Of a DNA stretch of 64,000 nucleotides, positions 8,124-56,820 are shown piece by piece. The stretch spans positions 8,849-72,848 of IMG/VR virus record IMGVR_UViG_3300033150_001583; one strand, 5' to 3'. The stretch's first letter is position 1. The number at the start of each line of letters is the position of its first letter. The notes beneath the pieces were generated by a model. The model did no database searches. It saw nothing but the letters and a program-made list of their open reading frames with translations, and had not been told where the DNA came from. This DNA comes from a virus. The position numbers were made by a program, and so were the translations under genes.

Positions 8124-8472
8124 ATGGAAGATGCATTGGAGGGCTTGTAAATCTACTGGCTCTCCCCTATTTGATGGCCCTGTCTCTGAGTGGGATGTTA
8201 ATAAGGTTCGTTTGGTGTATTGGAGTAGTCTTTATGATTCTGTTTATGAAAGTCCAGATAGACCGCCTCAATATATTATAGATGATAATAAACTTTTGGA
8301 TGAGTGGTTTGAAGCACAAACTGAGGAATTAGAAGAGCGGGCTGAAAAAAATTACCGCGAGAAATATAGACAAGGAAAAGCAACGAATATGCCTTCTGCT
8401 TATAATCATCAGACTGTTTTTACAATAAAACGTTCCTCCTCGAAAAAAAGCGTGGTGAAGAATAATGGCTAA
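8005..8472 (+). CDS. Tail assembly chaperone C-terminal extension (gpT-like), probably reached by recoding
   Basis: Overlaps the upstream chaperone by about 120 nt in the +1 frame and ends overlapping the TMP start; the protein-like part appears to begin near 'KLREIAK'. Confidence 0.55.
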   Translation: MMNYLPTSPRRRSLRPPWGRVKERRKLREIAKGTGQAGIRWKMHWRACKSTGSPLFDGPVSEWDVNKVRLVYWSSLYDSVYESPDRPPQYIIDDNKLLDEWFEAQTEELEERAEKNYREKYRQGKATNMPSAYNHQTVFTIKRSSSKKSVVKNNG

Positions 8473-11400
8473 AGCCTATGAAACTCAATATATTGTTACT
8501 CTTTCAGCGGTTGATGAGAGTCTTTTAGAAACTTTAACAGGGCAAAATGGAGTATTAGGTGCTCTTAATCAAATTCAACAGAAAATAGAGCAAATTAATA
8601 AGACTCCTATTACTATACGGACTAAGATAGAAGATAAAGAGGCCAAGCCTTCTTCTGGTGGATCTTCTTCTGGAGGAACAGGAGGAATATCTTCTGGTGG
8701 CGGAAGGCCACCTAAACACAATAAGAGAAGTCTTGATACTGCGGAAGTAAATCAAGTAGCCGCCGCTTCAAAGAAGATTGCTAAAGGCTATAATGAACTA
8801 GCTGGGTCTATTGAAAAACTTAAGCAAGTAGGCAAGGTTTCTTTAGGAAAAGATTTAGGAATTACTGCTAAAACTATTGGAAGTCTTAGGGATTTAGGTG
8901 AAGCGTCTGGTAATGCTGGTACTGGTTTAGAAAAGGTTGCTAGTGCTCTTGAAGGCATTGGTCAGGCTAAAGGGTTTTCTGCGGTGAAAAATTTAGGGGC
9001 TAATTTAACAAATATTAGAAGAGTTGAAGGCTTGGGAGATGCTGCTATTCGTGCTGGCACTGGTTTAAATGAAATTGCCAATGCTCTCCAGCGGATGGGG
9101 GATGTAAAAAAAATTGGTCCAACAATTACTTATACCAATAAGCAAATTGGCAAGTTTATTTCTACTTTAAGACATTTAGATCAAAAAGGTACTAAGGCTT
9201 TAGTAGGACTTGAGACTAGACTTGCTTCTATACAACAAAGAATAAATGATACTATATCTAAAATAAATGCACTTTCGACTGTTGGTGCTAGTAAGCTTGA
9301 AGCATTTCAGCAAAGACAGACAAAAAGAAGTATTTCTCAAGAACAAAAGCAAGATCTTGAAAAAATTAAAGAAGCTACTTCTGCTCAGGCACAAGAATTG
9401 GAAAAACAGTATTTGAGTGCAATGCGTAATATCCAACGCCAGCGTTTTGGTAGGGCCATGACTATTGCTGATATGCTGGGTGTTAAGATTGATCCCAGGG
9501 ATTATCAGCACATGTTTGATTTTAATGTCCAGCTTCAAGCTGCTCGTGAACAAGTGCGGAAAATGTTGGAGCAGCATAAAAGGACTAAACAAAGCCTTTA
9601 TAGTGTTATTCCTCTCTATGACGAGATGGGCAATAAAGTATCTCAATTTGCTGTGATGGTTGATAGGGCTGGTAGAGTTATTTATAACTTTGACCGTGAT
9701 TTGATTCAATTGTTCCAGAATATGTTCTACAGGATGGGAGTTTGGGCTATAGCAACTGCTGGTGTTTATATGTTCATCAATGCTATCAAAGAAGCTATTC
9801 AGTATATGAAAGATCTTAGTAGACAACTTAAATTACTGGAGATTGCGGCAGGAGGACTTAATATTGGCGAAATTATAGAAGGTATAGGACGGCTTGTGTC
9901 TGAATATGGAGGGACGGTAGCTGAAGCTGTTGATATTACATACCAGTTTGTAAAAGTTCTTCGCGATGAAGAAAAAGCCTTGGAAGCTACTAAGTTGGCT
10001 TTAATGGCATATAATATTTCTGGTTTGGAGTACGATGAATCTGCCGAGTTATTGATTGGTGTAATGAACCAATATAATTTGTCAATTCGAGAAGCTAGAG
10101 ATTTGATGGATGCTTGGGCGGTTGCTTCTCGTAAGGGTACTGTTGACTTTAAAGAATTAGCGGAGGCATTTAATAAATCTGCTGTTGCCGCCAATGAACT
10201 AGGTATTAGCTATAAAGAACTGACGGCAATGATTGAGGCAGTAGGAACTGCTAGTGGTGAAAGTGGTAAAGAAATAGGTAACTTTGTGAAGTTTATATTG
10301 GAACATGCTAGAGATTTAGAGACTTTATATGCTGTTCAAGAAGTAGCTGGCGTTCCTGTATTTACTGAAACTGGTGAGTATAGAAGTACTTTTGATGTAC
10401 TTGTTGATTTAGGAAAAGCCTGGAAAGATCTTAGTGATGATCAAAGAAATTATGTTAAGACTGCTTGGGCAAGTTATCGTCAGGGTGCTAGGTTTAAAGC
10501 TTTAATGGAGGCTACCAGTCGAGACATAGAAGAATTTGGTTCTACTTTAGGTATATTGAAAGAGATACATGAAGGTTATGGTGAGGCAGCTTATCAGAAT
10601 GCTTTAGTTCTCAATACTTTGCAGGGTGCCTTCCAAAAGTTGCAAGGTGTTTATACTACTTTTGTTCAAAGTTTTACTGATAGTGGTTTGGCACAACTTA
10701 TTAAATTTGCAGTGAAGGGACTTTATACTTTACTTGATTTGTTCAATAAAACTGATGATGCAGGCACGCACTTCCTTAGTTTGATAAGTGCTATTATTAC
10801 TAGAATTGCTATAATGGCAAGACAGGGGATGGGTACTCTTGCCCGTTCCATAGGTGAATTTAAGGATGCAATGAATAGTTTTGCACGGGCACAAGAGGTT
10901 GCTGGCACTCAAGGAGCTGCTGCTCAAGAAAAGATACGCAGTGAGATCGGTGTTACAAATACTGCTTTAAATCATCAGATAGCTTTAGTAGATCGGTTGA
11001 TTGCTGGCTACAGAAGATTGTTTGGTACTGAAGTTCCTCAGACTGTGAAGGAGGCTACGAAAGATACCGAGAAAATAATACCGAGTAGGGTTTTTTCACC
11101 TAAGACTCCAGTGACACCTAGACAGCCAGTTGATTTAAGTTATATTCCTTCTCCTCGTAAAACGACTCCATCAGGGATTATAGTCCCTGGAGGAATTTCG
11201 CGCGATTTTGTTACTAGTTATGACCGAAAGTTTAATATGGGTTTAATAGGTAGAGTACAAGATAGAATTAGTAAATTTTCTAATGCTATTAGGAGTAGTT
11301 TAGATGGTATTATTGTCTCTATGAGGAATCTTGGGAATAAGATACCTGCTACTTTAAGGAAGATAGATGACAGCTTTGCCAAGGCATTAAGGAGTAGCAA

Positions 11401-14400
11401 TTTATTTGGCGATGCATTATTAAAAATTGAGCGTGGAGAAATAAAGGCTGGTCGTGCTGGAAAGACACTTACTGGGATAATTACTACTATCAATACTGCT
11501 CTTACTGCCACTACTGGAGTTATAGGTAGACTTAAATTTGCTATTAGAGGTTTGATGGCTGCTATACCTGAGATTTTATTGTTATCTCTTGCCTTTGAGG
11601 CAGTATATAAAGGTATTGAGAAAATTGGTGAAGCTTGGGATAAATCAGTTGAGAGAAGGGCATTATATGAGCGTAATAGAGTACAGGCGTTTGCTATGGC
11701 TAGGGAAGATTTTCATAAGATGCTTGCTGAAGGAAGAAAACTTTACTTAATGCCCGAAAAGGAAAGGACATTAACTAAGTATGAAGAGGAAGAATTGAGA
11801 AGACTTGAAGAGCGTGAAAAAGAAGGTTTGACTACTTCGGATGAAGTTAGACTGGAAGAGTTACGTGCTAAAAAGAGACGGCAGGAAAGATTTCAGGAGA
11901 TTAGAGAGAGGACGACCCTTGACCTTTATGAATGGGGTCAACATATTACTCCAGAAGATTTAATGTTGATGGATGAAGAAGAGGTTGATAGGTTATTAGA
12001 TGAATATTTTAAGAAGCTACCACAAAAAGTAAAAGAAGAAATTAAAGTAGCCAAAGAAAAAATTAAAGAGGAAAAGGCTTTGAGACTTCCTTTAATTGAT
12101 CCCGCTGAGATTTCTAAATATGAAACCGAAGTAAATAGGTTTTTTGATAAAATAAATCGGCGGTTAAAAGAATACAAAAATCAACTTGACTATGTTAGAG
12201 AAAGTTATTTGGGTTTAGGTAGTAGTAATGAATACTATAAGACTGTGCTTGAAGAATTAACTCAAGTGCAAAGCGTTATCTTGGATAATTACGATGAAAC
12301 TAATATGAAATTATTTCAAGTACAAAATAAGTATAATGAGGCTACTAATGCTCTTCGAGATTATGAGGAATTGTTGCGGAGGCAAGGAAAAGATGTTGAA
12401 AGTATGTGGAAGAAAATTTATACTGGGGAGATTGATGATTCTGATAGTGATATAAAGAAACTCAAGGAATATTATGATGCTCAACAGCGTTATGAGGCAT
12501 TGTTGGTTAAAGCGAAGCAGGAGCAGGCCAATTTAAATAAAGAATTAGTCAATACAAAGAAGGAAATGCTAGACCTCGTTATGAGTAGCAATGAGTATGC
12601 TGGTGTTTGGGATAGTATTCAGCAAAGGATTAAACTTGTAAAACAGACTCTTGCTGATTTGCGGAATATTAGGTTAACCGAGGGTGTAGGTGAAAGGATT
12701 GCCGAAATAGGTATTGAAGTGTTTGGCCGTGGCTGGGATAAACCTACATTTCTTATTAATCGTATTTCAGGAAATATTGATAAGCTATTTAGTAATATAA
12801 CTAAGATTGAAGAATCTCTTGCTCTTTTTGGTGATGATCAGGAGAAACTAAGGGAAGCACTGGATAAAGTTAAATTTGGTGAAATAGGTCAACAAATGAA
12901 AGTTGCTGTTACCGATCCAATTATTCAGCAGGCGAAAGAAACCCTTAAAGTTGAAGAAAGACAAGAAGAGGTATTAAAGGAAATTAAAGAAGGTATTGGG
13001 GATTTAACAAAAACACTTACAGAAGAAAAATTTGGAGAGGGTAGTGGCAAAGTAGAACTTGGGGCTTTAGGCTGGCATGATCTTAGAGAAAAAACACTTT
13101 CTGGCGAGAGATCAATAACGGCAATTGTGAAAGAATATGCACAGAAGTATGGAGATCCAAGGTTATTTGCTTTGACTATGGGATTTATTTCGAGAGAAAG
13201 TGGTTTTAATCCTAATGCTATGAATACTAAGGGAGAATATTCTGTTGGTTTGGGGCAAATTAACTTACAAGGGGCTGCGGGTAAAAGAAACATATCAATT
13301 TTAAAAGAAGTTTTGAAGGAGCAGGGTATAGATCTTGAACAAGCAAAACTTGCAGAAACAGGGATTTTCGGGAAAAGAGCTTCTTCTGTTTTATATAGAG
13401 GAGAAAAAATTAAATCGTGGGAAGAATACCTCAAAGACCCAGAAATAAATATAGCAGTAACTATGAGACGAATTAAGGAAGACCTTGAAAGGGCTGGTGG
13501 AGATTTTATAGGATTGATGAGGAATTACGTTGGCCCGAAGGTTCCTAATGAGGAAATTATTAGGCGTGCTAAAGAGGTAAATAAGTATGCAGGATGGGAA
13601 CTTATCAATATTGATGAACTTACCAAAAAGTTAAAATATGGGAATGCAGAAGGAAGAATTTTGGCGGAAGCGCAAGAGTCCAGGAAAGATTTAGTAAATG
13701 CAGAAAAGGAAAGCGTAAAGCTTCTTAGGGAAAATATTTCTGAGTTAAGGCAGATGTTGATATATAGTCTTAATACTATACCCGAACTGGCTGAAGTTTT
13801 AGAAGGATTAGGTAATGTGTGGTCTGGATTTTCTGTTAGTAAGGCTGAATTATATCGCAGAAATATAGAAAGAGCTTTTGACAAGATTAAAGATATACCT
13901 TCCCTTTTAACTAAGGGATTAGAAGAAGCATTAAAAGGTGCAGTAGGAGAATATTATGATGCAGCTATAGCTGAACAAGAAAAACAGTATCAGAAAGAAA
14001 TTTCTTTGAGGGAAAAATTAATTACTGTTGATAGAAGCCTAGCAGAAAGTCATTCTACTATTCTTGAAAATATTAAAGATAAACTTATTGACTTATTGCG
14101 TGATGCTCCTTTAGATAAAGTTGATGCAATACTCGATAAAATAAGAGAAGTTTATAACGAAATAGTTTCAGCAAAGAAAGTTGAACTATTTGAAAATCTC
14201 TTTAGAGAAATTGATGTTAATTCTCTTTTATCTGGTATATCTCCTATTTTTGGTATAGATTTAGTTAATGTTGTTGATTCAATTAAGGAAGATTTAGTTG
14301 ATTTATTTAAACAACATCCCGATAGAAGAGGCGAGGTAGAAAATACTCTAAGAGCAATAAATGATATAGCTACTCAAGTTAAGTATAATACTACTTATCA

Positions 14401-16690
14401 TGTTGCTGAAATCGGTAAGGTTGTAAGAGGTTTGCAAAGAGCTACGATAGGTACTCCTGAATACTATCAGTTAGTAGAAAACTTGCGTACCAGATTAGAA
14501 AATCTCTACGGTTTGGATAAGAAGATCAACTCCTTAAGTGAAATTTTTAATCAAATGGCTGTTGAGCTTCCTGAAATCTATGGACAGTTGGCCGATTTAA
14601 GAACAAAGAAGGCTAACCGTGACTTAATAACATTATTTGAACAGATTGAGCAGGTAAATGAAGTATTTAGAGACACTACCCCTCTGTCGATGAAATATTT
14701 CGCGGTACAAAAAGACTTAGTAGAATTAGAACAAAGAGAGTTAGATATTTTAAATGATAGAGTTTCTGCTGCTCAAAAACTGTTTGAATTAACTGGTCAA
14801 GGATTGAGAGAATTTGTCACAATAGCAGGTCAACAAAGGGAGTACCGCAGGGCTTTACTAGAAAATCAACGTGCTCAACTTATTAATCAAATACTAGGCG
14901 GAAAATTTTCGGGGGAAGAATATCAAGCATTACTGAAAGAACTTGTATCAATCGAAAAGCAATGGATGGAACTAATTACTGAACGTAGAGATTTATTAAC
15001 TGAAAGCTTTAAACTTGGTATTATTTCTCTTGAAGAATATATTTCCAAATTAGATGAATTAAGAGATAAAAATTATGATTTAAGGTCTTCTATCTTAGAT
15101 CTAAGAACTACTATGGAAACAAGTATTAGAGAAGCATTTAAGAGTGCGTTAACTGGTGCTTTCACTGGTTCTTTGACGGCTGGCACAGATTTTATAAATT
15201 CAATTAAAAATTCACTTGCCGAGGCTGTATCCGAAAGTATTACTACTTCCCTATTAAACAACGCGGGAATAAAAGGATTATTAGATGAAACACTTAACGA
15301 GATTACTGAATCAATTTACAGTGGAAAGCTTATAGACGATGATGCAATAAGAGATAATTTACAACAAATAATAAATACTTTGTCTGGATACTTGCCTGCT
15401 TATAGAGATTTGCTAAGTGGAATTTTTGAGACGCTAGAGAATTCTGTATTTAACGCCCCTACTGGATTTAAAATTGAACCCTATTTGTATGAATTTATGA
15501 AGGCGCGTGGGCCAGAAGCATTCCCTGGCATAAATTTACCGCCTGATTATGAAAGTGGCACTACTCCCCTACCCTTACCTGAAAATCCTCCTGTGGAGGA
15601 AGTAAAAGTACCAAAAGTACCAGAAAATCCGATAAGAGAAACGTTAGATTTGTTATTTGTAGGACTCGATGAAAAATTTAGAGAACTAACTGATAGAGTT
15701 AGTACTTATTTCGATGAAGTTATTGAAACGTTTGATATATCTAATGTTATTTCTGATATATTGGACAGATATGGTATTAAAGTTGATAGAGGAACTGATT
15801 TTCAGGGAGCTTTAAGACAGGCATTTGATAAGGTTCTTGAGTTAAAGAGAACCTACATGGAGGCAGCTCGTAGGAATGACCAGACTACAATGGAAGCTGC
15901 ACATAAAAGTGCTGATGAAATTCGTAGAAAAATATCTGAAGCTACTGGTGCATCAATTAGTAAAATAAATGATTTAATAGGTGCAGGCAGGTCGTTATAT
16001 AGTATTAGTGAAAGTACTTGGAATCAACTACTTGAATTACCTGAGATTAAAGATGCGATTAATAATAATGCTTCTGCTATAGATTCTTTAAAAGATGCTT
16101 TAAGTAATATTACTATTAATGTTTCTGGTAGTTTTGGTTCTGTAAGTACTAGTGGAAAGGGGTCTGGTAAGAGTTCTGGACGTTCTAGTGGTTCTAGTTC
16201 ATCTGTGCCGAGTTCTGTTTTAGATAAAATTAGAAAGAACCAAGATACTTGGTGGGCTGAATACAACAAACATAAGGATACAATAGATCCAGGTAATCCT
16301 TCTACATGGACAGATGCAATGAAAAAAGCTCATGAAGAAAATGAGAAGCTAACTAGTAAATATGGTTTAGAGTCTGGTACAACCAAGAGATATCATACTG
16401 GTGGTAGAAGTCCTTTTGAACAATTAGCTTTATTAAGGCCAGGAGAAATAGTAATACCTCCTGATTTAGTCCAATTTATAGATAAAGTTCGTGGTAAAGC
16501 ACACTATAGCTTTAATAACACACCAACTGAGAATAATTTTAAAGTAGAGGTAAATGTAGAAGTTAATGGTGGTAATCCTGCTGATGTTACTAAAGCTGTT
16601 GAGGAAGGGGTACAAAATGCTATAAGACAAATCGAAAGAGAAAATCGTATGAATAATTTAAGGTTTAGAGGAGTTAGTTATGCTTATTAA
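8465..16690 (+). CDS. Tape measure protein with internal lytic transglycosylase (SLT) domain
   Basis: 2741 aa, largely helical; TP901-like TMP core around aa 440-740; SLT motif 'FISRESGFNPNAMN...SVGLGQIN' at about nt 13180-13270. Confidence 0.9.
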   Translation: MAKAYETQYIVTLSAVDESLLETLTGQNGVLGALNQIQQKIEQINKTPITIRTKIEDKEAKPSSGGSSSGGTGGISSGGGRPPKHNKRSLDTAEVNQVAAASKKIAKGYNELAGSIEKLKQVGKVSLGKDLGITAKTIGSLRDLGEASGNAGTGLEKVASALEGIGQAKGFSAVKNLGANLTNIRRVEGLGDAAIRAGTGLNEIANALQRMGDVKKIGPTITYTNKQIGKFISTLRHLDQKGTKALVGLETRLASIQQRINDTISKINALSTVGASKLEAFQQRQTKRSISQEQKQDLEKIKEATSAQAQELEKQYLSAMRNIQRQRFGRAMTIADMLGVKIDPRDYQHMFDFNVQLQAAREQVRKMLEQHKRTKQSLYSVIPLYDEMGNKVSQFAVMVDRAGRVIYNFDRDLIQLFQNMFYRMGVWAIATAGVYMFINAIKEAIQYMKDLSRQLKLLEIAAGGLNIGEIIEGIGRLVSEYGGTVAEAVDITYQFVKVLRDEEKALEATKLALMAYNISGLEYDESAELLIGVMNQYNLSIREARDLMDAWAVASRKGTVDFKELAEAFNKSAVAANELGISYKELTAMIEAVGTASGESGKEIGNFVKFILEHARDLETLYAVQEVAGVPVFTETGEYRSTFDVLVDLGKAWKDLSDDQRNYVKTAWASYRQGARFKALMEATSRDIEEFGSTLGILKEIHEGYGEAAYQNALVLNTLQGAFQKLQGVYTTFVQSFTDSGLAQLIKFAVKGLYTLLDLFNKTDDAGTHFLSLISAIITRIAIMARQGMGTLARSIGEFKDAMNSFARAQEVAGTQGAAAQEKIRSEIGVTNTALNHQIALVDRLIAGYRRLFGTEVPQTVKEATKDTEKIIPSRVFSPKTPVTPRQPVDLSYIPSPRKTTPSGIIVPGGISRDFVTSYDRKFNMGLIGRVQDRISKFSNAIRSSLDGIIVSMRNLGNKIPATLRKIDDSFAKALRSSNLFGDALLKIERGEIKAGRAGKTLTGIITTINTALTATTGVIGRLKFAIRGLMAAIPEILLLSLAFEAVYKGIEKIGEAWDKSVERRALYERNRVQAFAMAREDFHKMLAEGRKLYLMPEKERTLTKYEEEELRRLEEREKEGLTTSDEVRLEELRAKKRRQERFQEIRERTTLDLYEWGQHITPEDLMLMDEEEVDRLLDEYFKKLPQKVKEEIKVAKEKIKEEKALRLPLIDPAEISKYETEVNRFFDKINRRLKEYKNQLDYVRESYLGLGSSNEYYKTVLEELTQVQSVILDNYDETNMKLFQVQNKYNEATNALRDYEELLRRQGKDVESMWKKIYTGEIDDSDSDIKKLKEYYDAQQRYEALLVKAKQEQANLNKELVNTKKEMLDLVMSSNEYAGVWDSIQQRIKLVKQTLADLRNIRLTEGVGERIAEIGIEVFGRGWDKPTFLINRISGNIDKLFSNITKIEESLALFGDDQEKLREALDKVKFGEIGQQMKVAVTDPIIQQAKETLKVEERQEEVLKEIKEGIGDLTKTLTEEKFGEGSGKVELGALGWHDLREKTLSGERSITAIVKEYAQKYGDPRLFALTMGFISRESGFNPNAMNTKGEYSVGLGQINLQGAAGKRNISILKEVLKEQGIDLEQAKLAETGIFGKRASSVLYRGEKIKSWEEYLKDPEINIAVTMRRIKEDLERAGGDFIGLMRNYVGPKVPNEEIIRRAKEVNKYAGWELINIDELTKKLKYGNAEGRILAEAQESRKDLVNAEKESVKLLRENISELRQMLIYSLNTIPELAEVLEGLGNVWSGFSVSKAELYRRNIERAFDKIKDIPSLLTKGLEEALKGAVGEYYDAAIAEQEKQYQKEISLREKLITVDRSLAESHSTILENIKDKLIDLLRDAPLDKVDAILDKIREVYNEIVSAKKVELFENLFREIDVNSLLSGISPIFGIDLVNVVDSIKEDLVDLFKQHPDRRGEVENTLRAINDIATQVKYNTTYHVAEIGKVVRGLQRATIGTPEYYQLVENLRTRLENLYGLDKKINSLSEIFNQMAVELPEIYGQLADLRTKKANRDLITLFEQIEQVNEVFRDTTPLSMKYFAVQKDLVELEQRELDILNDRVSAAQKLFELTGQGLREFVTIAGQQREYRRALLENQRAQLINQILGGKFSGEEYQALLKELVSIEKQWMELITERRDLLTESFKLGIISLEEYISKLDELRDKNYDLRSSILDLRTTMETSIREAFKSALTGAFTGSLTAGTDFINSIKNSLAEAVSESITTSLLNNAGIKGLLDETLNEITESIYSGKLIDDDAIRDNLQQIINTLSGYLPAYRDLLSGIFETLENSVFNAPTGFKIEPYLYEFMKARGPEAFPGINLPPDYESGTTPLPLPENPPVEEVKVPKVPENPIRETLDLLFVGLDEKFRELTDRVSTYFDEVIETFDISNVISDILDRYGIKVDRGTDFQGALRQAFDKVLELKRTYMEAARRNDQTTMEAAHKSADEIRRKISEATGASISKINDLIGAGRSLYSISESTWNQLLELPEIKDAINNNASAIDSLKDALSNITINVSGSFGSVSTSGKGSGKSSGRSSGSSSSVPSSVLDKIRKNQDTWWAEYNKHKDTIDPGNPSTWTDAMKKAHEENEKLTSKYGLESGTTKRYHTGGRSPFEQLALLRPGEIVIPPDLVQFIDKVRGKAHYSFNNTPTENNFKVEVNVEVNGGNPADVTKAVEEGVQNAIRQIERENRMNNLRFRGVSYAY

Positions 16691-47464: not shown

Positions 47465-48838
47465 TTGAGGCTCCCTTCTGAACTCAGGCAGAAAATGGAT
47501 GAGATTTCCGATGTAGCTTCTGAAAGGTCTGTTCTTTCTATATTGATAAACCATCCAGACCTTTATTATGACATTTTTTCTGAGGTTAATGTGGATTACT
47601 TTTCTAATTCTCAAAACAGAGAAATTTATAAGCTTATTTATAGTTATTTATCTAATAAGAAAGGGCTTTACAAGATTAATACTTATATTCTCTCTGATTT
47701 AGCCAAAAAACATGGTATTTTAGAAAAAATCGGGGGTAGAGATTATTTAAAAGCACTTGAAGATGTTAATAGTCCTAAAGAAAATTTGAGATTTTATCTT
47801 GATCAGTTGAAGTTTTATTATGTCCGCCGCCAAATTTTTGTTAAAGGATATGAGATACAGGAAGAAGCCTTAAACACTGAAACAAATGACTTAGATAAAT
47901 TTTTGGCGGAACAAGAAAGCAAACTAGTTGATATTTCATTAAAAACAAAGTATGGAGATGGTGTAGAAAACTTACTAGAAGATTTTGATACCCTTCTTGA
48001 AGAAAGAACCAAAAATCCAGGAGAAGTCTATGGTATCCCTACCCCTTTTAAAGAATTTAATAGGGCTACAGGCGGTCTTGTGGGTAATAGGCTTTATGTA
48101 ATTGGTGCTCGTTCGAAGAACTTTAAATCAGGGACGCTGATGAATATAGCCGTTTATGTTGCTAAGAATGTGGGTAATGTTCTTCTTCTTGATACTGAGT
48201 TAGATAAAAAACTTCAGCAGATACGTTTGTTGGCTATTTCTTCTGGCGTGCCTGAAAAAATGATTCAAAATGGTACTTTTATCAATGTTAAAAAATATCG
48301 GGAAGCTATAGAAAAAACCAAAAAATTTTTGCGGGGTAAAAAATTATTCCATAAGCACATACCTGTTTTCACTACTGATGAAATTGAGTACTTGGCACGA
48401 AAATACTACTTAAGAGAAAATATTAAACTGCTTGTTTTTGATTATATTAAAGAACCCGAAGACGATAATAAATATCGTTCTAAAAGAGAAAAACTTGGCG
48501 ATGTAACCATGAAACTTAAAGCTATATCTGCAAAATTAAATATACCTGTATTGACTGCTGTGCAGCTTAATAGGTTAGCTATTGACCAAAAAACCCTTGG
48601 TGAGGGCCATGTAGCTGAGTCTGATTTGATATTACAGAATGCAGACTACCTATTTTTTCAACGTTGGAAGACTGAAGAAGAACGCGAAGAGGAAGAGGGC
48701 AATTTTATTATCCAAGCTGGCCCTTCTCGATTTGGTTGCGAATATGAAGGGTGGTTCAATATTTATTCTTCTTTAAGAATGGAGGAATTAGGTAATTTCT
48801 ATATGGGTGAAAGTAAAGTGCTTGAAGAAGAATTCTAA
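47465..48838 (+). CDS. dnaB: Replicative helicase (DnaB family)
   Basis: 'E.SVLS.L', Walker A 'GARSKNFKS', 'LLVFDYIK', 'AVQLNR', 'ESD.I.Q.AD'. Confidence 0.9.
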   Translation: MRLPSELRQKMDEISDVASERSVLSILINHPDLYYDIFSEVNVDYFSNSQNREIYKLIYSYLSNKKGLYKINTYILSDLAKKHGILEKIGGRDYLKALEDVNSPKENLRFYLDQLKFYYVRRQIFVKGYEIQEEALNTETNDLDKFLAEQESKLVDISLKTKYGDGVENLLEDFDTLLEERTKNPGEVYGIPTPFKEFNRATGGLVGNRLYVIGARSKNFKSGTLMNIAVYVAKNVGNVLLLDTELDKKLQQIRLLAISSGVPEKMIQNGTFINVKKYREAIEKTKKFLRGKKLFHKHIPVFTTDEIEYLARKYYLRENIKLLVFDYIKEPEDDNKYRSKREKLGDVTMKLKAISAKLNIPVLTAVQLNRLAIDQKTLGEGHVAESDLILQNADYLFFQRWKTEEEREEEEGNFIIQAGPSRFGCEYEGWFNIYSSLRMEELGNFYMGESKVLEEEF

Positions 48839-48865
48839 AAAAATTTCGCGGGTATAAAAGGAGGA

Positions 48866-49081
48866 ATGATTATGAGAGATTTAATGATTGGCTTTATAGC
48901 ATTAGTAATAGTTTTGTTGTTGGATAGTTTATTGGTGATGCTGTGTTGGAATGAACTACTTCCCTATCTTTTTGGTTTGCCCAAAATAAGTTTTTTAAAG
49001 TCTATGGTTTTGGTTATATTATGCAATATTTTATTCAAGAGGAGAATGTTAGAATCTGATTCAAATAAAAATAAAAATTAA
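48866..49081 (+). CDS. Small membrane protein
   Basis: Two hydrophobic segments; AGGAGG RBS. Confidence 0.6.
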   Translation: MIMRDLMIGFIALVIVLLLDSLLVMLCWNELLPYLFGLPKISFLKSMVLVILCNILFKRRMLESDSNKNKN

Positions 49082-49094
49082 CTTTAAATTATAC

Positions 49095-49122
49095 TTGACA
49101 CTAGATATACAGTTGCTATAAT
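49095..49122 (+). promoter_or_regulatory. sigmaA promoter upstream of cas12f
   Basis: TTGACA (49095)-16 nt-TATAAT (49117) with extended -10 TG; same architecture as the 44269 promoter. Confidence 0.8.
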
Positions 49123-49230
49123 TAGAGTTGCGAAAATGATATGGAATAGACTTTAAGTAATATGTAAATGGAATTCATTTTGGGGTTTTGCTAGGGGGCG
49201 GTAAGGATTAGTAAGGAAATCACGCAATGC

Positions 49231-50457
49231 GTGGGTGCGGTGATTAAGAGACCTTTAGATGTCGAATGGGAAGAATTTGGTAAAGTATTACATGATTTAA
49301 GGTTTAAGACCGTACTTGCCTGTAATTATACCATACAACTCTATTGGGAGTGGGATAAAGAAAAGTTTAAATATAAGGAAGAATACGGCAATTTTCCAAG
49401 TGAAAAAGATGTTTTCGGAATGACTTTTAGAAATTATGTTTATCATAAGTTGAGAGAAAAATTTTCAGAAGTAAGTTCAGCTAATATATCACAGATACAG
49501 CAAGCTGCAATGAAGTTGTGGAAGAAAGAATTGCCAGAAATTCGAAAATTAAAGGCTTCTGTTCCAAGTGTTAAGTTGGGTTATCCTATACTTGTATATA
49601 ATAAAAACTATGAAATTAGAAGAAATAAAGAAGGTAGATTTGTAGTTAAATTGACTTTATATAGCAAAGAGAAAGAAAAAACGAGATTTGAAATTCTTTT
49701 AGATAAGCTGGATAAGTCTAAAAAAGCCATATTAGATAGAATTATATCGGGTGAATATAAACAAGGCGTATTACAAATAAGACAAATAAAAAAAAAGAAG
49801 AAAAAGAAATGGATGTGTATCTTTTCTTATTCCTTTGTTCCAGATAAGAGACATGAATTTATTAAGGATAGAGTAATGGGAATTGATTTAGGTATTAATT
49901 ATACTGCCTATTGTGCTCTTAATGATGATCCTAAGCCGAGATATCCTTATAAAGGGGGTGAGATTAAAGAGTTTAATAGAAGATTGAAAAAGAGAAAAAT
50001 TAGCATTCAGAAATCAGGCGGGAAAACAGGACATGGCCGAAAGCGCAAATTACTTCCTGTGGAAATTTTTTCAGGGCGGATAAAAAATTATAGAAACACA
50101 ATAAATCATAAGATAGCTAAACGAATAGTTGATAAAGCTTTAAAATTCAAGGTAGCTAAAATTCATTTAGAAGACTTATCTGAGATAGGTGAAGACACAG
50201 GTAATACTTCATTCTTTTTAGAAAACTGGCCTTATTATGATTTACAGCAAAAAATAAAGTATAAAGCCGAAAGAGAAGGTATTGAGGTGTGTTTCATAGA
50301 CCCTAAAAATACTTCTATTAAATGTTCGAAATGTGGATATATAGACAAAGAAAATAGAGATAAAGAGAAATTCAAGTGTAAGAAATGTGGTTTTGAGGCT
50401 CATGCTGATTATAATGCTGCTAGAAATATAGCTATGAGTGTTGATTATGTGAGTTAA
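49231..50457 (+). CDS. cas12f: Cas12f (type V-F) / TnpB-superfamily RNA-guided nuclease
   Basis: RuvC-I MGIDLG, RuvC-II IHLEDL, Zn finger CSKC/CKKC, RuvC-III HADYNAARNI. N-terminus 'IKRPLDVEWEEFGKVLHDL' resembles AsCas12f1 as recalled. Adjacent tracr-like RNA and array. The true start may be upstream, e.g. ATT at 49207. Confidence 0.85.
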   Translation: MGAVIKRPLDVEWEEFGKVLHDLRFKTVLACNYTIQLYWEWDKEKFKYKEEYGNFPSEKDVFGMTFRNYVYHKLREKFSEVSSANISQIQQAAMKLWKKELPEIRKLKASVPSVKLGYPILVYNKNYEIRRNKEGRFVVKLTLYSKEKEKTRFEILLDKLDKSKKAILDRIISGEYKQGVLQIRQIKKKKKKKWMCIFSYSFVPDKRHEFIKDRVMGIDLGINYTAYCALNDDPKPRYPYKGGEIKEFNRRLKKRKISIQKSGGKTGHGRKRKLLPVEIFSGRIKNYRNTINHKIAKRIVDKALKFKVAKIHLEDLSEIGEDTGNTSFFLENWPYYDLQQKIKYKAEREGIEVCFIDPKNTSIKCSKCGYIDKENRDKEKFKCKKCGFEAHADYNAARNIAMSVDYVS

Positions 50458-50460
50458 AAT

Positions 50461-50615
50461 TAAATACCAGGGCGATTTCACGTCCTGAAGGTGAGAAGTG
50501 TCATATCCTTGCAGTGACATGATAACGCTCACCAAGCCTAAAAAATCCCTTGCTATACGAGGCGCAGGGGCACCCTAATACTAATACAGATTGACGACAT
50601 TTTTTGTTGTTTTGA
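50461..50615 (+). ncRNA. tracrRNA-like structured RNA (copy 1)
   Basis: Stems GGGCG/CGTCC, GTGAG/CTCAC, CCCTTGC/GCAGGGG; CACCC complementary to GGGTG of the repeat; terminal hairpin plus U-tract; a second diverged copy at 56313 shows covariation. Confidence 0.8.
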
Positions 50616-50654
50616 GGATTTATAATCCTTGAGAATACTAGATTTCGAAATGGG

Positions 50655-50863
50655 GTTTCTAATAAGGCTATATCGGGTGGAAACGCGGCCAGCTTGAACC
50701 AACCATCAGTCAATGCTAGAGTTTCTAATAAGGCTATATCGGGTGGAAACGTAGAAGTGGCAGATGAGTGGGACATAGTACAGATTGGTTTCTAATAAGG
50801 TTATGTTGGGTGGAAACAGCAATGTTGTTGATTAAATAGAGTTCGTTTATGTGGGGTGGAAGC
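50655..50863 (+). CRISPR. Mini CRISPR array: three 30-bp repeats plus one truncated repeat
   Basis: GTTTCTAATAAGGCTATATCGGGTGGAAAC at 50655 and 50721 (identical) and 50788 (3 mismatches); spacers of 36 and 37 bp; degenerate 3' half-repeat at 50847-50863. Confidence 0.92.
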
Positions 50864-50948
50864 AACAGACAATAGAACAAAATATAGATGTAGTTAAAGT
50901 ATTTCTGAAGAAATTATACAGGATGGGAACATGTGGTGAGGCAGAAAA

Positions 50949-52037
50949 ATGTCAAAAAGAAGACATTTTTTAGAAATAAAGCAGATAATAGAACAAAATA
51001 TAGACGTAGTTAAAGTTTTGGAGTTTTATGGCGCAAGAAAAATTAAAAAATTTCCATCTGGCATACGTTGTTGCTGTCCATTGCACGATGGTGATAACTA
51101 CACGTCTTTTTATTTTAATACAGACACCATGACGTGGTATTGTTTTTCACGAAATTGCGGGGAAGGTATATCTAAAGACATTTTCGGCTTTGTCTATCTC
51201 GCGCAGAAAAAAATCGCAGGGAAAAGAGCAACATTAAAAGACGTAATATCAATTTTGCTTTCATTCTGCAATATCAATATAACCCTTGATGAAATAGATT
51301 TCTCCTATAACAAAGAACTTTACGACGCAGTAGACAATACTAACTTTATTAAAACAGTTAAATCGGATAAAGATACACACATTGATTTAGAAACGCTTAA
51401 TTATGATACTATTGCTCCTTTTTATAAAGAAGAACCATCGTACCTGTATACAAGAGGATACAGTAGAAAAATTATAAGTGTGTTTTCTATAGGTTTTTCT
51501 AGATACGGCATTAATGAAAAACACAAAATTAAAGATGATTTTCCAGGCAGAGTTATAGTTCCCGTGGAGCATTTAGATAATTCTTTAGTTGGTCTAAGTG
51601 GAAGACTTGCTACTGACAACAAAGAATTAATTAATAAATACGGCAAATACAGACATTTAGTTGACTTTCAAAAAGGGGCCGTACTCTATAATTTAAATCG
51701 AGCTTTGCCTTATATCAAGAGAGAGAAAAGTGTTATTTTTGTAGAAGGTTTTTTTGATGTGATGAGACTCTATACTTTTAGAGTAAGAAATGTAGTATCA
51801 CTGATGGGAACCTCCCTAACTAAATATCAAAGAAGCTTAATATTACCCTATGTTGAGAATGTATATCTTATGTTAGATTCTGATGAAGGAGGTGAGAAAG
51901 GAACTAAAAGAGTTGCGAAACAGTTAAAGGGATTGTGCAATATCTATCGTATTCCTCTTCCCTGCGGGAAAGACCCTGATGACTTATCTTTAAAAGAATT
52001 TTGGTTGAGTTTTGGAAGGGCAAAAAAAATAGTTTAA
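50949..52037 (+). CDS. dnaG: DNA primase (CHC2 zinc finger plus Toprim)
   Basis: 'CCCPLHDG...WYCFS..C', 'FPGRVIVP', 'FVEGFFDV', 'LMLDSDEGG', 'GKDPD'. Confidence 0.9.
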   Translation: MSKRRHFLEIKQIIEQNIDVVKVLEFYGARKIKKFPSGIRCCCPLHDGDNYTSFYFNTDTMTWYCFSRNCGEGISKDIFGFVYLAQKKIAGKRATLKDVISILLSFCNINITLDEIDFSYNKELYDAVDNTNFIKTVKSDKDTHIDLETLNYDTIAPFYKEEPSYLYTRGYSRKIISVFSIGFSRYGINEKHKIKDDFPGRVIVPVEHLDNSLVGLSGRLATDNKELINKYGKYRHLVDFQKGAVLYNLNRALPYIKREKSVIFVEGFFDVMRLYTFRVRNVVSLMGTSLTKYQRSLILPYVENVYLMLDSDEGGEKGTKRVAKQLKGLCNIYRIPLPCGKDPDDLSLKEFWLSFGRAKKIV

Positions 52038-52432: not shown

Positions 52433-53728
52433 GTGCCTATAGCTGAAGAAACTTTGTTAGTGACTAGAAAGGGCATACTCCCTTTTTCTGCTTTTATTAA
52501 AGATAAACAACATAGGAGAGATATTTTATATCCTGTTGGGCGAGATATGTTTATCAGAGCTTTAAATAATTATGAGACTACATTTGAGGGATACCTGTTT
52601 TTTGGCAAAGGAGAAGCTATCAGAATAACAACATTAACTGGTTATTCTGTTATTGCTTCTCCTGATCAAAGGGTAAGAATTGTTAATTCTACTGGAAATT
52701 ATAGCTGGAGGCGCATGGAAAGTTTACAGGGTGGCGATTGGGTTGTCTTACAGATGAATTCTTATCCTGATTATGTTGATGATTTTTCACCGACTTTGTT
52801 AAAAGAGCCTTTAGATGATGAAGACATGGTTTTGCCTACAAGATTAACACAAGAGTTGGCAGAGTGGCTTGGATATTTTTTATTCAGGGGGATTCTTTTT
52901 TACCCCGAAAAAGATAAAAAGGCTCAAATTGGGTTTATATATAGCAACGAAAAAATAAAAAATTATCTGATAGGTTTAACGGCAAAACTTTTTGGGATAA
53001 GTGATTATGAGAAAATAGAAGGATTGGGTCTTCATAGTGCAGGTGCATTTGGTTATCAGTCCAATACACTGTTTAAGTGGCTGATTAGCGTTGGGTTATT
53101 AGGTTCTGAAGGTATTCCTCAAATTCCCTCTCTCATTTTTCGCGGGGGAAGAAAGATGATATATCCATTTTTGAGGGGAGCTTTTTCAGCCTGTTGTTTA
53201 GTAGAAGAATTGAAAAATAAGAGAGTTATTAAGTTGTATTCTCCTTATATTGACTTGATTCGAGAATTACAGATACTCTTACTTTCAATTGGTATTCCAA
53301 CAATAATAAATACTTCTATTCAGGATTCTGATTACTTATTTACTCTATATGTAATAACTAAAAAGGGACTTAAGAACTTTAGAGACAATATTGGTTTTTT
53401 TGATTCGCCTTTAAGCAATGCTTTAGAGGAGATAAATTTACTCAATTATGCACCAGAGAAAAAAATCGGGGGGCTAAGAGAAATATATGAGGAAGACCCT
53501 AAAAACTTAAAGAGTAGAAGCCAAACCGATATACTTAGGATTAAAAGGTTATTCACAGATGTAAGAGTGATGACACTTTCTAAAACATTAATTTGTGAAG
53601 TATTTAATGAGAATCATCTGTATGACCAAGTAATTTCAATCGAAAAAACCAAAGCAAAGCTTTATGAACCGAGATTAATTGGCAAAAGAAGCTTTGTGGG
53701 TAATGGATTTGTATTTTTTGTTGAGTAA
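52433..53728 (+). CDS. Free-standing intein-like protein (Hint-N, LAGLIDADG, Hint-C) with degenerate catalytic motifs
   Basis: Block A-like 'PIAEETLLVTRKG', block B-like 'VIASPDQRV', LAGLIDADG-like 'LAEWLGYFLFRG' and 'FLRGAFSACC', block F/G-like 'LYEPRLIGKRSFVGNGFVFF'; no extein on either side. Confidence 0.75.
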   Translation: MPIAEETLLVTRKGILPFSAFIKDKQHRRDILYPVGRDMFIRALNNYETTFEGYLFFGKGEAIRITTLTGYSVIASPDQRVRIVNSTGNYSWRRMESLQGGDWVVLQMNSYPDYVDDFSPTLLKEPLDDEDMVLPTRLTQELAEWLGYFLFRGILFYPEKDKKAQIGFIYSNEKIKNYLIGLTAKLFGISDYEKIEGLGLHSAGAFGYQSNTLFKWLISVGLLGSEGIPQIPSLIFRGGRKMIYPFLRGAFSACCLVEELKNKRVIKLYSPYIDLIRELQILLLSIGIPTIINTSIQDSDYLFTLYVITKKGLKNFRDNIGFFDSPLSNALEEINLLNYAPEKKIGGLREIYEEDPKNLKSRSQTDILRIKRLFTDVRVMTLSKTLICEVFNENHLYDQVISIEKTKAKLYEPRLIGKRSFVGNGFVFFVE

Positions 53729-56289: not shown

Positions 56290-56312
56290 GGAGGTGATGA
56301 GCAATAGATAAT

Positions 56313-56470
56313 TAGATACTAGGGCGATTCCGCGTCCTAAAAGTGAGAAGTGCTATATCCTTACAATGGTATAGTGGCACTCACTAAGCCTTAAAAATCC
56401 TTCGCTATGCGAGGCGCGAAGGCATTCCACATTATTAAAAATCGACGACATTTTTTGTTGTTTTGGAAGT
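56313..56470 (+). ncRNA. Second, orphan tracrRNA-like copy
   Basis: Colinear with 50461-50615 along its length, with conserved stems and compensatory changes; no cas gene adjacent. Confidence 0.8.
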
Positions 56471-56504
56471 TTGTGAACCTTGAAAATAGCTAACTTCATG
56501 GTGG

Positions 56505-56535
56505 GTTCTGGAGTAAACTATGTGGAATGGGAAAT
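56505..56535 (+). CRISPR. Solitary diverged CRISPR repeat followed by a putative guide
   Basis: GTTCTGGAGTAAACTATGTGGAATGGGAAAT sits at the position equivalent to repeat 1 of the main array; its ATGTGGAATG pairs with CATTCCACAT in the copy-2 tracr. Confidence 0.65.
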
Positions 56536-56580
56536 GGTTATTAATTGGAATACATTTGAATTCTATTAGGAGGGGTTTGA

Positions 56581-56820
56581 TTGGATGTAAACGAGGTTTT
56601 TATTAATTGTTGGGTGTGGAAGGCAGTTTTGAGTTTTATAGGGCTTTATGTTTTTATCTTTGGTTTTGCTGCTTTGGGCGCAGTATCTGATAAGCCTATT
56701 TTATCTGCTACTTCTATATCAATTGCGTGGCTATGCAGTATAGGAGCTTGGGTGGTGGGGATTATAACTTTATTTTTATTAATCGCTAAAATTTTACTAT
56801 GGTTGGGGGTTTTGTATTAG
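56581..56820 (+). CDS. Small membrane protein
   Basis: AGGAGGGG RBS; two hydrophobic helices. Confidence 0.6.
   Translation: MDVNEVFINCWVWKAVLSFIGLYVFIFGFAALGAVSDKPILSATSISIAWLCSIGAWVVGIITLFLLIAKILLWLGVLY

Follow-up and report, generated by a model that had tools for sequence, protein, structure and literature searches.

CRISPR mini-arrays that are carried by viruses are used in inter-viral conflict (Medvedeva et al. 2019, PMC6858448; reviewed in PMC11656645). The free-standing homing endonucleases of T-even phages, SegF, SegG and MobE, act by intronless homing and marker exclusion: the site they cleave is in an adjacent gene of relatives that lack the endonuclease, the resident allele being different, and markers on the flanks undergo co-conversion (PMC2988022). 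Homing of IS200/IS605 elements by TnpB and its omegaRNA is RNA-guided (Meers et al. 2023; PMC10690162; reviewed in PMC13565253), and CRISPR-associated transposons use self-matching homing CRISPR RNAs (crRNAs) that have atypical repeats or are delocalised (Petassi 2020, Saito 2021, as summarised in PMC11656645). Here we analyse a Cas12f cassette that lies between the DnaB helicase gene (dnaB) and the primase gene of a phage, and whose repeat array contains a spacer, spacer 4, that matches the adjoining primase gene at nearly every position. The phage genome is IMG/VR record IMGVR_UViG_3300033150_001583, a complete virus record of 139,584 bp with direct terminal repeats and a G+C content of 34%. 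The window is the part of this record from position 8,849 to position 72,848, a stretch of 64,000 nt, and all positions below refer to the window unless they are given as genome positions.

The locus shares features with each of these systems. Like the virus-borne mini-arrays, it has a short array, no adaptation genes, and one spacer that nearly matches the carrier lineage, the carrier's own copy being different; unlike them, it comes with its own effector, Cas12f, and a trans-activating CRISPR RNA (tracrRNA), and the matching sequence is in an adjoining essential gene, with sibling phages as the hypothetical target. As with SegF, SegG and MobE, a nuclease gene is wedged between conserved genes of the replication module, the presumed target lies in the adjacent conserved gene at a distance of tens to hundreds of bp, and the resident allele would be protected by sequence differences, here in the protospacer-adjacent motif (PAM) and the seed. 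Recognition in the present case, however, would be RNA-guided through a CRISPR spacer, whereas theirs is by protein, and homing is hypothetical here.

The resemblance to TnpB homing is that Cas12f is a relative of TnpB and that the guide points at element-adjacent DNA, as it does where element-free alleles are cut and repaired from element-bearing ones. The guide of TnpB is the DNA that abuts the right end of the element, whereas the guide here would be a repeat-bounded spacer with a second, diverged copy as its target; a TnpB-style reading in which the guide is simply the flank is ruled out by repeat 5, described below. Neither TnpA nor ends of an insertion sequence are evident at the locus. 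With the CRISPR-associated transposons it has in common a self-matching spacer that has atypical repeats and stands beside the array or at its distal end, and a protospacer that adjoins the element. In contrast to them, there are no Tn7- or Mu-type transposition genes (the only genes between dnaB and the primase gene are cas12f and an open reading frame (ORF) of 71 amino acids), the nuclease appears intact, and the protospacer has the cassette on its PAM side, not on its PAM-distal side. Finally, self-targeting spacers beside mutated repeats or PAMs are reportedly common in bacteria, and these leftovers of autoimmunity resemble our locus in the near-perfect self match, the lost PAM, the seed mismatches and the damaged flanking repeats. 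They differ from it in that the carrier here is a phage and the target is immediately beside the array.

The array and its near-self spacer

The array consists of repeat 1, spacer 1, repeat 2, spacer 2, repeat 3, a shortened spacer 3, a repeat 4 of which the 3' 19 nt are left, spacer 4 and a degenerate repeat 5 (Table 1). When spacer 4 is read in the register of a guide, positions 50864-50900 match positions 50980-51016 of the primase gene at 34 of 37 positions, with mismatches at guide positions 2, 7 and 26. A search for repeats found the same pair as 50866-50903 against 50982-51019 (35/38), and a BLAST comparison of the genome with itself as 50866-50900 against 50982-51016 (33/35); the latter reproduces exactly a match that had been noticed in an earlier note on this DNA. 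The BLAST alignment stops at 50900, the last base of the spacer, and beyond the 37 nt there is no similarity between spacer and primase gene on either side. The local alignment score of spacer 4 is 30, against a null maximum of 13.5 in 300 other 5-kb windows of the genome, and the self-comparison found just 18 repeat pairs in the whole 139.6 kb. Spacers 1-3 and the two orphan guides described below gave no significant match in the genome or in their own flanks. The two copies lie 116 nt apart, with the protospacer starting 79 nt past the end of the spacer and 49 nt past repeat 5. If the target were drawn from anywhere in the genome, it would fall within about 120 nt of the array roughly 0.2% of the time.

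Spacer 4 had been thought to be the terminal unit of the array, but repeat 5 follows it at 50901-50930, which makes it an internal spacer of canonical length. The start of repeat 5 is exactly 37 nt beyond repeat 4 and, counted from where a full-length repeat 4 would have begun (50834), keeps the 67-nt period of the array. Only eight of the roughly 279,000 30-mers that the two strands of the genome contain have at least 21/30 identity to the phage repeats, and six of these, repeat 5 included, are repeats or repeat-like units. In a comparison with the repeat of L019, an independent relative with a Cas12f array, repeat 5 scores 23/30, higher than any other stretch of the genome; the canonical repeats of the phage reach 18/30. 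It does not have the GGGUG that pairs with the anti-repeat of the tracrRNA. The degenerate fourth repeat that the earlier note described is indeed present. Its distance from repeat 3 is 46 nt, compared with the usual 66-67 nt.

A comparable arrangement exists in the prophage-borne Cas12f array of L019 (L019:8562-8913), which includes a 5'-truncated repeat that keeps its 3' 16 nt. The spacer after this truncated repeat matches plasmid NZ_CP063416.1 of Parageobacillus thermoglucosidasius at 31 of 32 positions, with the flank CCTA, and another spacer of the same array matches an SSB gene on the Paenibacillus plasmid NZ_CP062261.1 (35/41, flank CTTG). The plasmid match behind a truncated repeat implies that such spacers are real spacers in this Cas12f family. 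Because both borders of the similarity coincide with the canonical length and phase of the array, we are highly confident that 50864-50900 is a true spacer, derived from a primase gene of this phage lineage, rather than a scar of recombination. Two of the three mismatches fall at third codon positions, as fits a spacer that was copied from a functional primase allele.

A type V crRNA is made up of the spacer and, 5' of it, the 3' portion of the upstream repeat. Repeat 4 can form seven contiguous pairs (GGGGUG with CACCCU) at the homologous site of the anti-repeat, a pairing at least equal to that of repeat 1, and in AsCas12f it is the repeat-proximal duplex, R:AR-2, that contacts the protein, whereas R:AR-1 hardly does (bioRxiv 10.1101/2023.07.03.547593). 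The handle of repeat 4 and spacer 4 would thus be expected to give a Cas12f crRNA (first 20 nt, AACAGACAAUAGAACAAAAU). The tracrRNA that would serve it is encoded between cas12f and the array. Homologous tracr regions with the same layout lie between the cas gene and the array in L008, L011 and L019, and the order of cas12f, tracr region and array on one strand is found at four loci of relatives (L008, L011, L017 and L019). In unit 3, L008, L011 and L019 there is covariation between the 3' half of the repeat and the anti-repeat, which lies just 5' of a conserved hairpin. An orphan copy elsewhere in the genome is 91% identical to the tracr region.

The resident target, the nuclease and the insertion

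The flank 5' of the primase copy reads ATAA and is not of the TT type, as the earlier note had it; A stands at position -2, and a single synonymous change (Ile ATA to ATT) turns ATAA into ATTA, which fits NTTR. The note had also described the first two bases as divergent and placed one further mismatch in the seed. That seed mismatch stands, at position 7, but of the first two bases only position 2 differs. The mismatch at position 2 (AAG versus xAA) is at a third codon position and would be synonymous if the source codon was AAA; that at position 7 (ATA versus ACA) exchanges Ile and Thr; and that at position 26 (GAC versus GAT), the only one among positions 8-37, is synonymous. AAG accounts for 3 of the 35 Lys codons of the primase gene, and its rarity hints that the derived base is in the resident gene and not in spacer 4. 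A lost PAM, mismatches in the seed and a near-perfect distal part are the classic signs of a target that has escaped interference. The resident primase allele looks disarmed and, to judge from its sequence, would be immune to cutting.

The nuclease itself is intact in its catalytic residues: D219, E314 and D393 of the RuvC triad align with the catalytic motifs of AsCas12f1, to which the protein is about 41% identical, and the zinc finger is also present. The gene is single-copy in the 139.6-kb genome, in which Cas1 and Cas2 were looked for and neither was found, as in other virus-borne arrays. AsCas12f1 recognises an NTTR PAM, with Y76 and S92 contacting both T's and H72 and K96 contacting position -1 (bioRxiv 10.1101/2023.07.03.547593). 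By alignment, Y76 and S92, the TT readers, have conserved counterparts in Y71 and S87 of the phage protein, and because of this conservation a PAM with T at positions -3 and -2 is a moderately secure prediction. Spacers 1 and 2 yield no PAM, since their protospacers were not found in viral contigs, phages or plasmids; in proteobacterial genomes spacer 1 has four 20-mer matches, which is about chance level, and spacer 2 has none. The spacers of the L008 array were likewise without phage matches.

The cassette is an insertion into a conserved junction. In relatives, the gap between dnaB and the primase gene is 3 nt in L001, 18 nt in L021 and 7 nt in L022, compared with 2,110 nt here, and in L023 a single small ORF (85 amino acids) lies between the two genes. 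Close relatives of the locus were not found in the searches made. Protein searches with the primase and Cas12f gave nothing above 47-48% identity; viral contigs scanned with the primase, Cas12f and DnaB contained distant relatives only or none; and a BLAST search of GenBank phages with the locus returned a single match, which was irrelevant. Viral, metagenome and genome contigs were also searched for a sensitive allele, with a degenerate pattern for Q[T/I]IEQNIDVVKV, and none contained a match. DNA searches with the tracr core and the full repeat pattern had none either, and the conserved hairpin motif had one, unrelated and of low complexity.

What the near-self spacer may be for

We consider it plausible, though evenly balanced, that spacer 4 serves, or once served, as a guide aimed at sibling phages with the unmutated primase allele, the resident allele being immune. 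The earlier note had offered a guide that cuts other alleles while the resident one is protected among its explanations; it is the one that best fits the data, although it is a reading that we infer. On this account spacer 4, the fourth and oldest spacer, would have been copied from the 5' end of the primase gene (codons 11-23) of this lineage. The phage would tolerate it because the resident primase gene, with its ATAA flank and its seed mismatches at positions 2 and 7, would be no substrate. The intended target would be the unmutated allele in co-infecting siblings, much as virus-borne mini-arrays act in inter-viral conflict. The target starts 49 bp past the edge of the cassette, in the conserved gene that adjoins the insertion point, and because of this adjacency a cut genome that was repaired from the resident genome would tend to gain the immune allele and the cassette together.

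In a stronger form of the same idea, which we hold to be unlikely, the Cas12f cassette would itself home under RNA guidance and so amount to a naturally occurring CRISPR gene drive that acts among phages. Cassette-free siblings would be cut by means of the founding spacer in their primase gene, 50-70 bp away from the insertion point, and recombinational repair from the resident genome would copy the recoded, immune 5' end of the primase gene along with cas12f, the tracrRNA and the array. The proximity of target and array is predicted by three readings, namely homing, regulation, and acquisition from array-adjacent DNA.

Phage-borne CRISPR systems are usually seen as weapons against hosts or rival phages, and TnpB, the presumed ancestor of Cas12f, works for its transposon through RNA-guided homing. 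If it is true that the oldest spacer is aimed at the adjoining essential gene and that the resident copy has been recoded at PAM and seed, the two roles, weapon and homing, would be linked, and one cut would both exclude a sibling phage and spread the cassette. If confirmed, the locus would be a natural example of the logic of synthetic CRISPR gene drives, and would explain adaptation-less Cas12f cassettes inside conserved phage modules. Should homing in particular be true, the cassette would do with CRISPR what Seg and Mob do in the intronless homing of T4, and would connect TnpB homing functionally with CRISPR immunity.

Several observations weigh against a guide aimed at sibling phages. No sensitive allele, and no phage primase more than 47% identical, was found in any collection searched. 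The PAM is predicted across just 41% homology, and the position -1 readers H72 and K96 are replaced here by R67 and Q91. PAMs differ within the family, BlCas12f recognising CCN (PMC13670948), and the two L019 protospacers have the flanks CTTG and CCTA although L019 Cas12f retains all four PAM residues of AsCas12f; the second of these flanks suggests that the PAMs of the clade may be looser than NTTR. There are only three mismatches, and neither their bias towards the seed (P about 0.09) nor that towards synonymous change (P about 0.16) is significant. Spacer 4 lies in a decaying trailer end, between the truncated repeat 4 and the degenerate repeat 5 and next to the shortened spacer 3, and may no longer be expressed or loaded. 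In addition, the Cas12f loci of L008, L011, L017 and L019, which are carried by mobile genetic elements, contain 22 stretches of guide length behind a repeat, and not one of them has a match in its own 5-7 kb flanks; proximity is therefore not a family trait.

Some of this evidence also agrees with the main rival reading, an inert relic. Spacer 4 could have been self-acquired near the array, or could have come with an array captured from a host immunised against this phage, and have no present function; we regard this as possible but doubtful. The lineage would then have survived through loss of PAM and seed in the protospacer and through decay of the flanking repeats. Such a history would agree with the damage to both of these repeats, the shortening of spacer 3, the position of spacer 4 as the oldest unit at the trailer end, PAM and seed changes of the kind that self-targeting survivors show, and the failure to find a sensitive allele in the collections searched. 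Array-adjacent DNA is also said to be an adaptation hot spot in E. coli, and with no Cas1 or Cas2 in the genome acquisition would have relied on foreign machinery or preceded capture. On the other hand, repeat 4 retains precisely the type V 3' handle, with anti-repeat pairing no weaker than that of repeat 1. A memory spacer derived from a host would leave the 116-nt distance to the target, with its chance expectation of about 0.2%, unexplained, and a self-acquired spacer with a PAM would have been immediately lethal, so that escape would have had to be simultaneous. The architecture expected of recombination between spacer and protospacer is not seen either: both copies persist and are separated by repeat 5 and the primase start. 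That the cassette was captured through such recombination was also considered and rejected, as this would give one hybrid copy and a deleted primase start. Even as a relic, the locus would still be a clean example of phage tolerance of a self-matching spacer.

The remaining explanations had both been raised in the earlier note. In one, the crRNA of spacer 4 directs Cas12f to bind without cutting at the 5' end of the primase gene and so dampens or times its expression or read-through. The target is indeed in the gene directly 3' of the array, a consensus scan of the + strand from the array to the primase gene found no terminator-like site, and natural CRISPR regulators exist (tracr-L, CreR-type mini-arrays, TldR; bioRxiv 10.1101/2023.03.03.530964). 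But the known regulatory cr-like RNAs of the tracr-L, scaRNA and CreR type have a PAM, a perfect PAM-proximal match, distal mismatches and promoter targets (class: bioRxiv 10.1101/2023.03.03.530964). The present match is the reverse of this: the predicted PAM is missing, the PAM-proximal part has mismatches (2 and 7), and the distal part fits almost throughout. It targets a coding stretch, codons 11-23, rather than a promoter or 5' untranslated region. The catalytic residues of the nuclease are apparently intact, the crRNA would have the same sense as the primase mRNA, making an antisense effect impossible, and the local RNA fold is not significant (z = -1.06). We therefore disfavour autoregulation and consider it highly unlikely. 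In the other explanation the match is a duplication scar, the 5' end of the primase gene having been duplicated when the cassette inserted, or by later illegitimate recombination, with a repeat remnant next to it by accident. The insertion into the dnaB-primase junction and the form of the two copies, direct repeats 116 nt apart, would allow for this. The similarity ends at the spacer borders, however, where repeat 4 stops and repeat 5 begins; the 37-nt length and the 67-nt phase are canonical, and a family-type repeat comes next. Moreover, both copies are to the right of the cassette, which is thus not flanked by them, and nothing outside the 37 nt is similar. A scar is barely credible on these grounds.

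Setting of the cassette and minor observations

The genes and signals around the array are all on the + strand, in the order dnaB, 71-amino-acid ORF, promoter, cas12f, a non-coding structured stretch, the repeat array and the primase gene (Table 1). The start codon of the primase gene is 18 nt past the end of the array, and its ribosome-binding site 4 nt past repeat 5. The 71-amino-acid ORF had no match in Pfam and is unlike the 85-amino-acid ORF that occupies the same place in L023. An Rfam search of 48800-51200 returned no family.

Table 1. Features of the dnaB-primase region, in window coordinates
Feature	Position	Strand	Basis or remark
DnaB-type replicative helicase gene	47465..48838	+	Pfam DnaB and DnaB_C; primase gene directly next in relatives
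71-amino-acid hydrophobic ORF, left edge of inserted segment	48866..49081	+	ORF list; putative cassette member
Sigma-70-type consensus promoter upstream of cas12f	49095..49122	+	Hexamers 12/12, TG extension
cas12f, 408 amino acids, AsCas12f1 clade, type V-F1	49231..50457	+	Pfam Cas12f1-like_TNB; PDB 8j12/7wju, E about 1e-89
tracrRNA region: anti-repeat (GCACCCUAAUA), conserved GACGAC/GUUGUU hairpin, array leader	50469..50654	+	Homology to other tracr regions
Repeats 1-3 (50655-84, 50721-50, 50788-817) with spacers 1 and 2 (36 and 37 nt)	50655..50817	+	Repeat search
Spacer 3, 27 nt	50818..50844	+	Deletion of about 20 nt, which also took the 5' part of repeat 4
Repeat 4, 5'-truncated, 3' 19 nt kept	50845..50863	+	16/19 identical to repeat 3
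Spacer 4, 37 nt, near-self	50864..50900	+	34/37 to primase codons 11-23; between repeats 4 and 5
Repeat 5, degenerate, terminal	50901..50930	+	21/30 to the orphan repeat of the phage, 19/30 to repeats 1 and 3
Ribosome-binding site (GGTGAGG) and ATG of the primase gene	50935..50951	+	Sequence
DnaG-type primase gene, 362 amino acids (CHC2 zinc finger and Toprim)	50949..52037	+	Pfam; 46% identical to L001 primase
PAM position of resident protospacer, ATAA	50976..50979	+	A at position -2
Resident protospacer, primase codons 11-23, start of zinc-finger domain	50980..51016	+	34/37 to spacer 4

Two further tracr units of the phage stand apart from the array. One lies outside the window, on the minus strand at genome positions 130420-130720 (L007:1200-1900), and consists of a tracr region, a leader and one repeat, about 91% identical to the main copy and without an adjoining cas gene. 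A weak repeat-like 30-mer (18/30 to repeat 1) follows 36 nt past its repeat, and the unit may be a one-spacer mini-array; its guide has no match within the genome. The other, at 56290-56640 of the window, is again a tracr region with a repeat, and about 59 nt past that repeat comes a further stretch (TTGGGTGTGGAAGG) that looks like a repeat of the main array. Directly behind TTGGGTGTGGAAGG are 15 nt that resemble the primase gene at 51014-51029 (15/16 with one gap, P about 0.01 per window), which adjoins the protospacer of spacer 4; this resemblance is probably due to chance. A 22-nt stretch (GACGAC, a T run, GTTGTT and TTTG) is identical in all three tracr units, at 50587-50612, at 56444-56466 and at about genome positions 130540-130565 (minus strand). 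It could form a G-U-rich hairpin followed by T's and may be the terminator of the tracrRNA or part of an array promoter. A lone repeat-like 30-mer (22/30 to the phage repeats), without an upstream tracr region, is found outside the window on the minus strand at genome positions 114909-114938, where it straddles the stop codon of a small zinc-ribbon-like ORF.

Over 13 nt, the 5' part of repeat 5 (50900-50912) is 85% complementary to codons 6-10 of the primase gene (50966-50978), a pairing that would loop out the ribosome-binding site and start codon of the primase gene; it was around repeat 5 and this start that the RNA fold, compared with shuffled sequences, gave the z value cited above. Two other resemblances are probably chance. 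The 3' 17 nt of spacer 3 (50828-50844) match the primase gene at 51286-51302 in 15 of 17 positions, with a local-flank P of about 0.04 and the PAM-proximal part unmatched. The first 20 nt of spacer 4 match 8577-8596 with three mismatches (positions 7, 14 and 19) and the flank ATTC; that site is a Q/K/E-rich coding stretch of a gene for 2,741 amino acids (8465-16690), probably a tape measure gene.

Homologues of the Cas12f protein that are 43-48% identical to it sit inside conserved modules of other phages (L011:5001-6640 and L018:7001-8344), one between LysM and baseplate genes with a two-spacer array, the other after a nucleotide-metabolism block, where no array was detected. This Cas12f clade appears to be carried largely on mobile genetic elements. 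In the present phage, a free-standing LAGLIDADG-like/intein ORF (Pfam LAGLIDADG_3) lies at 52433-53728, two genes 3' of the primase gene, and the replication module thus seems to accumulate selfish nuclease genes.

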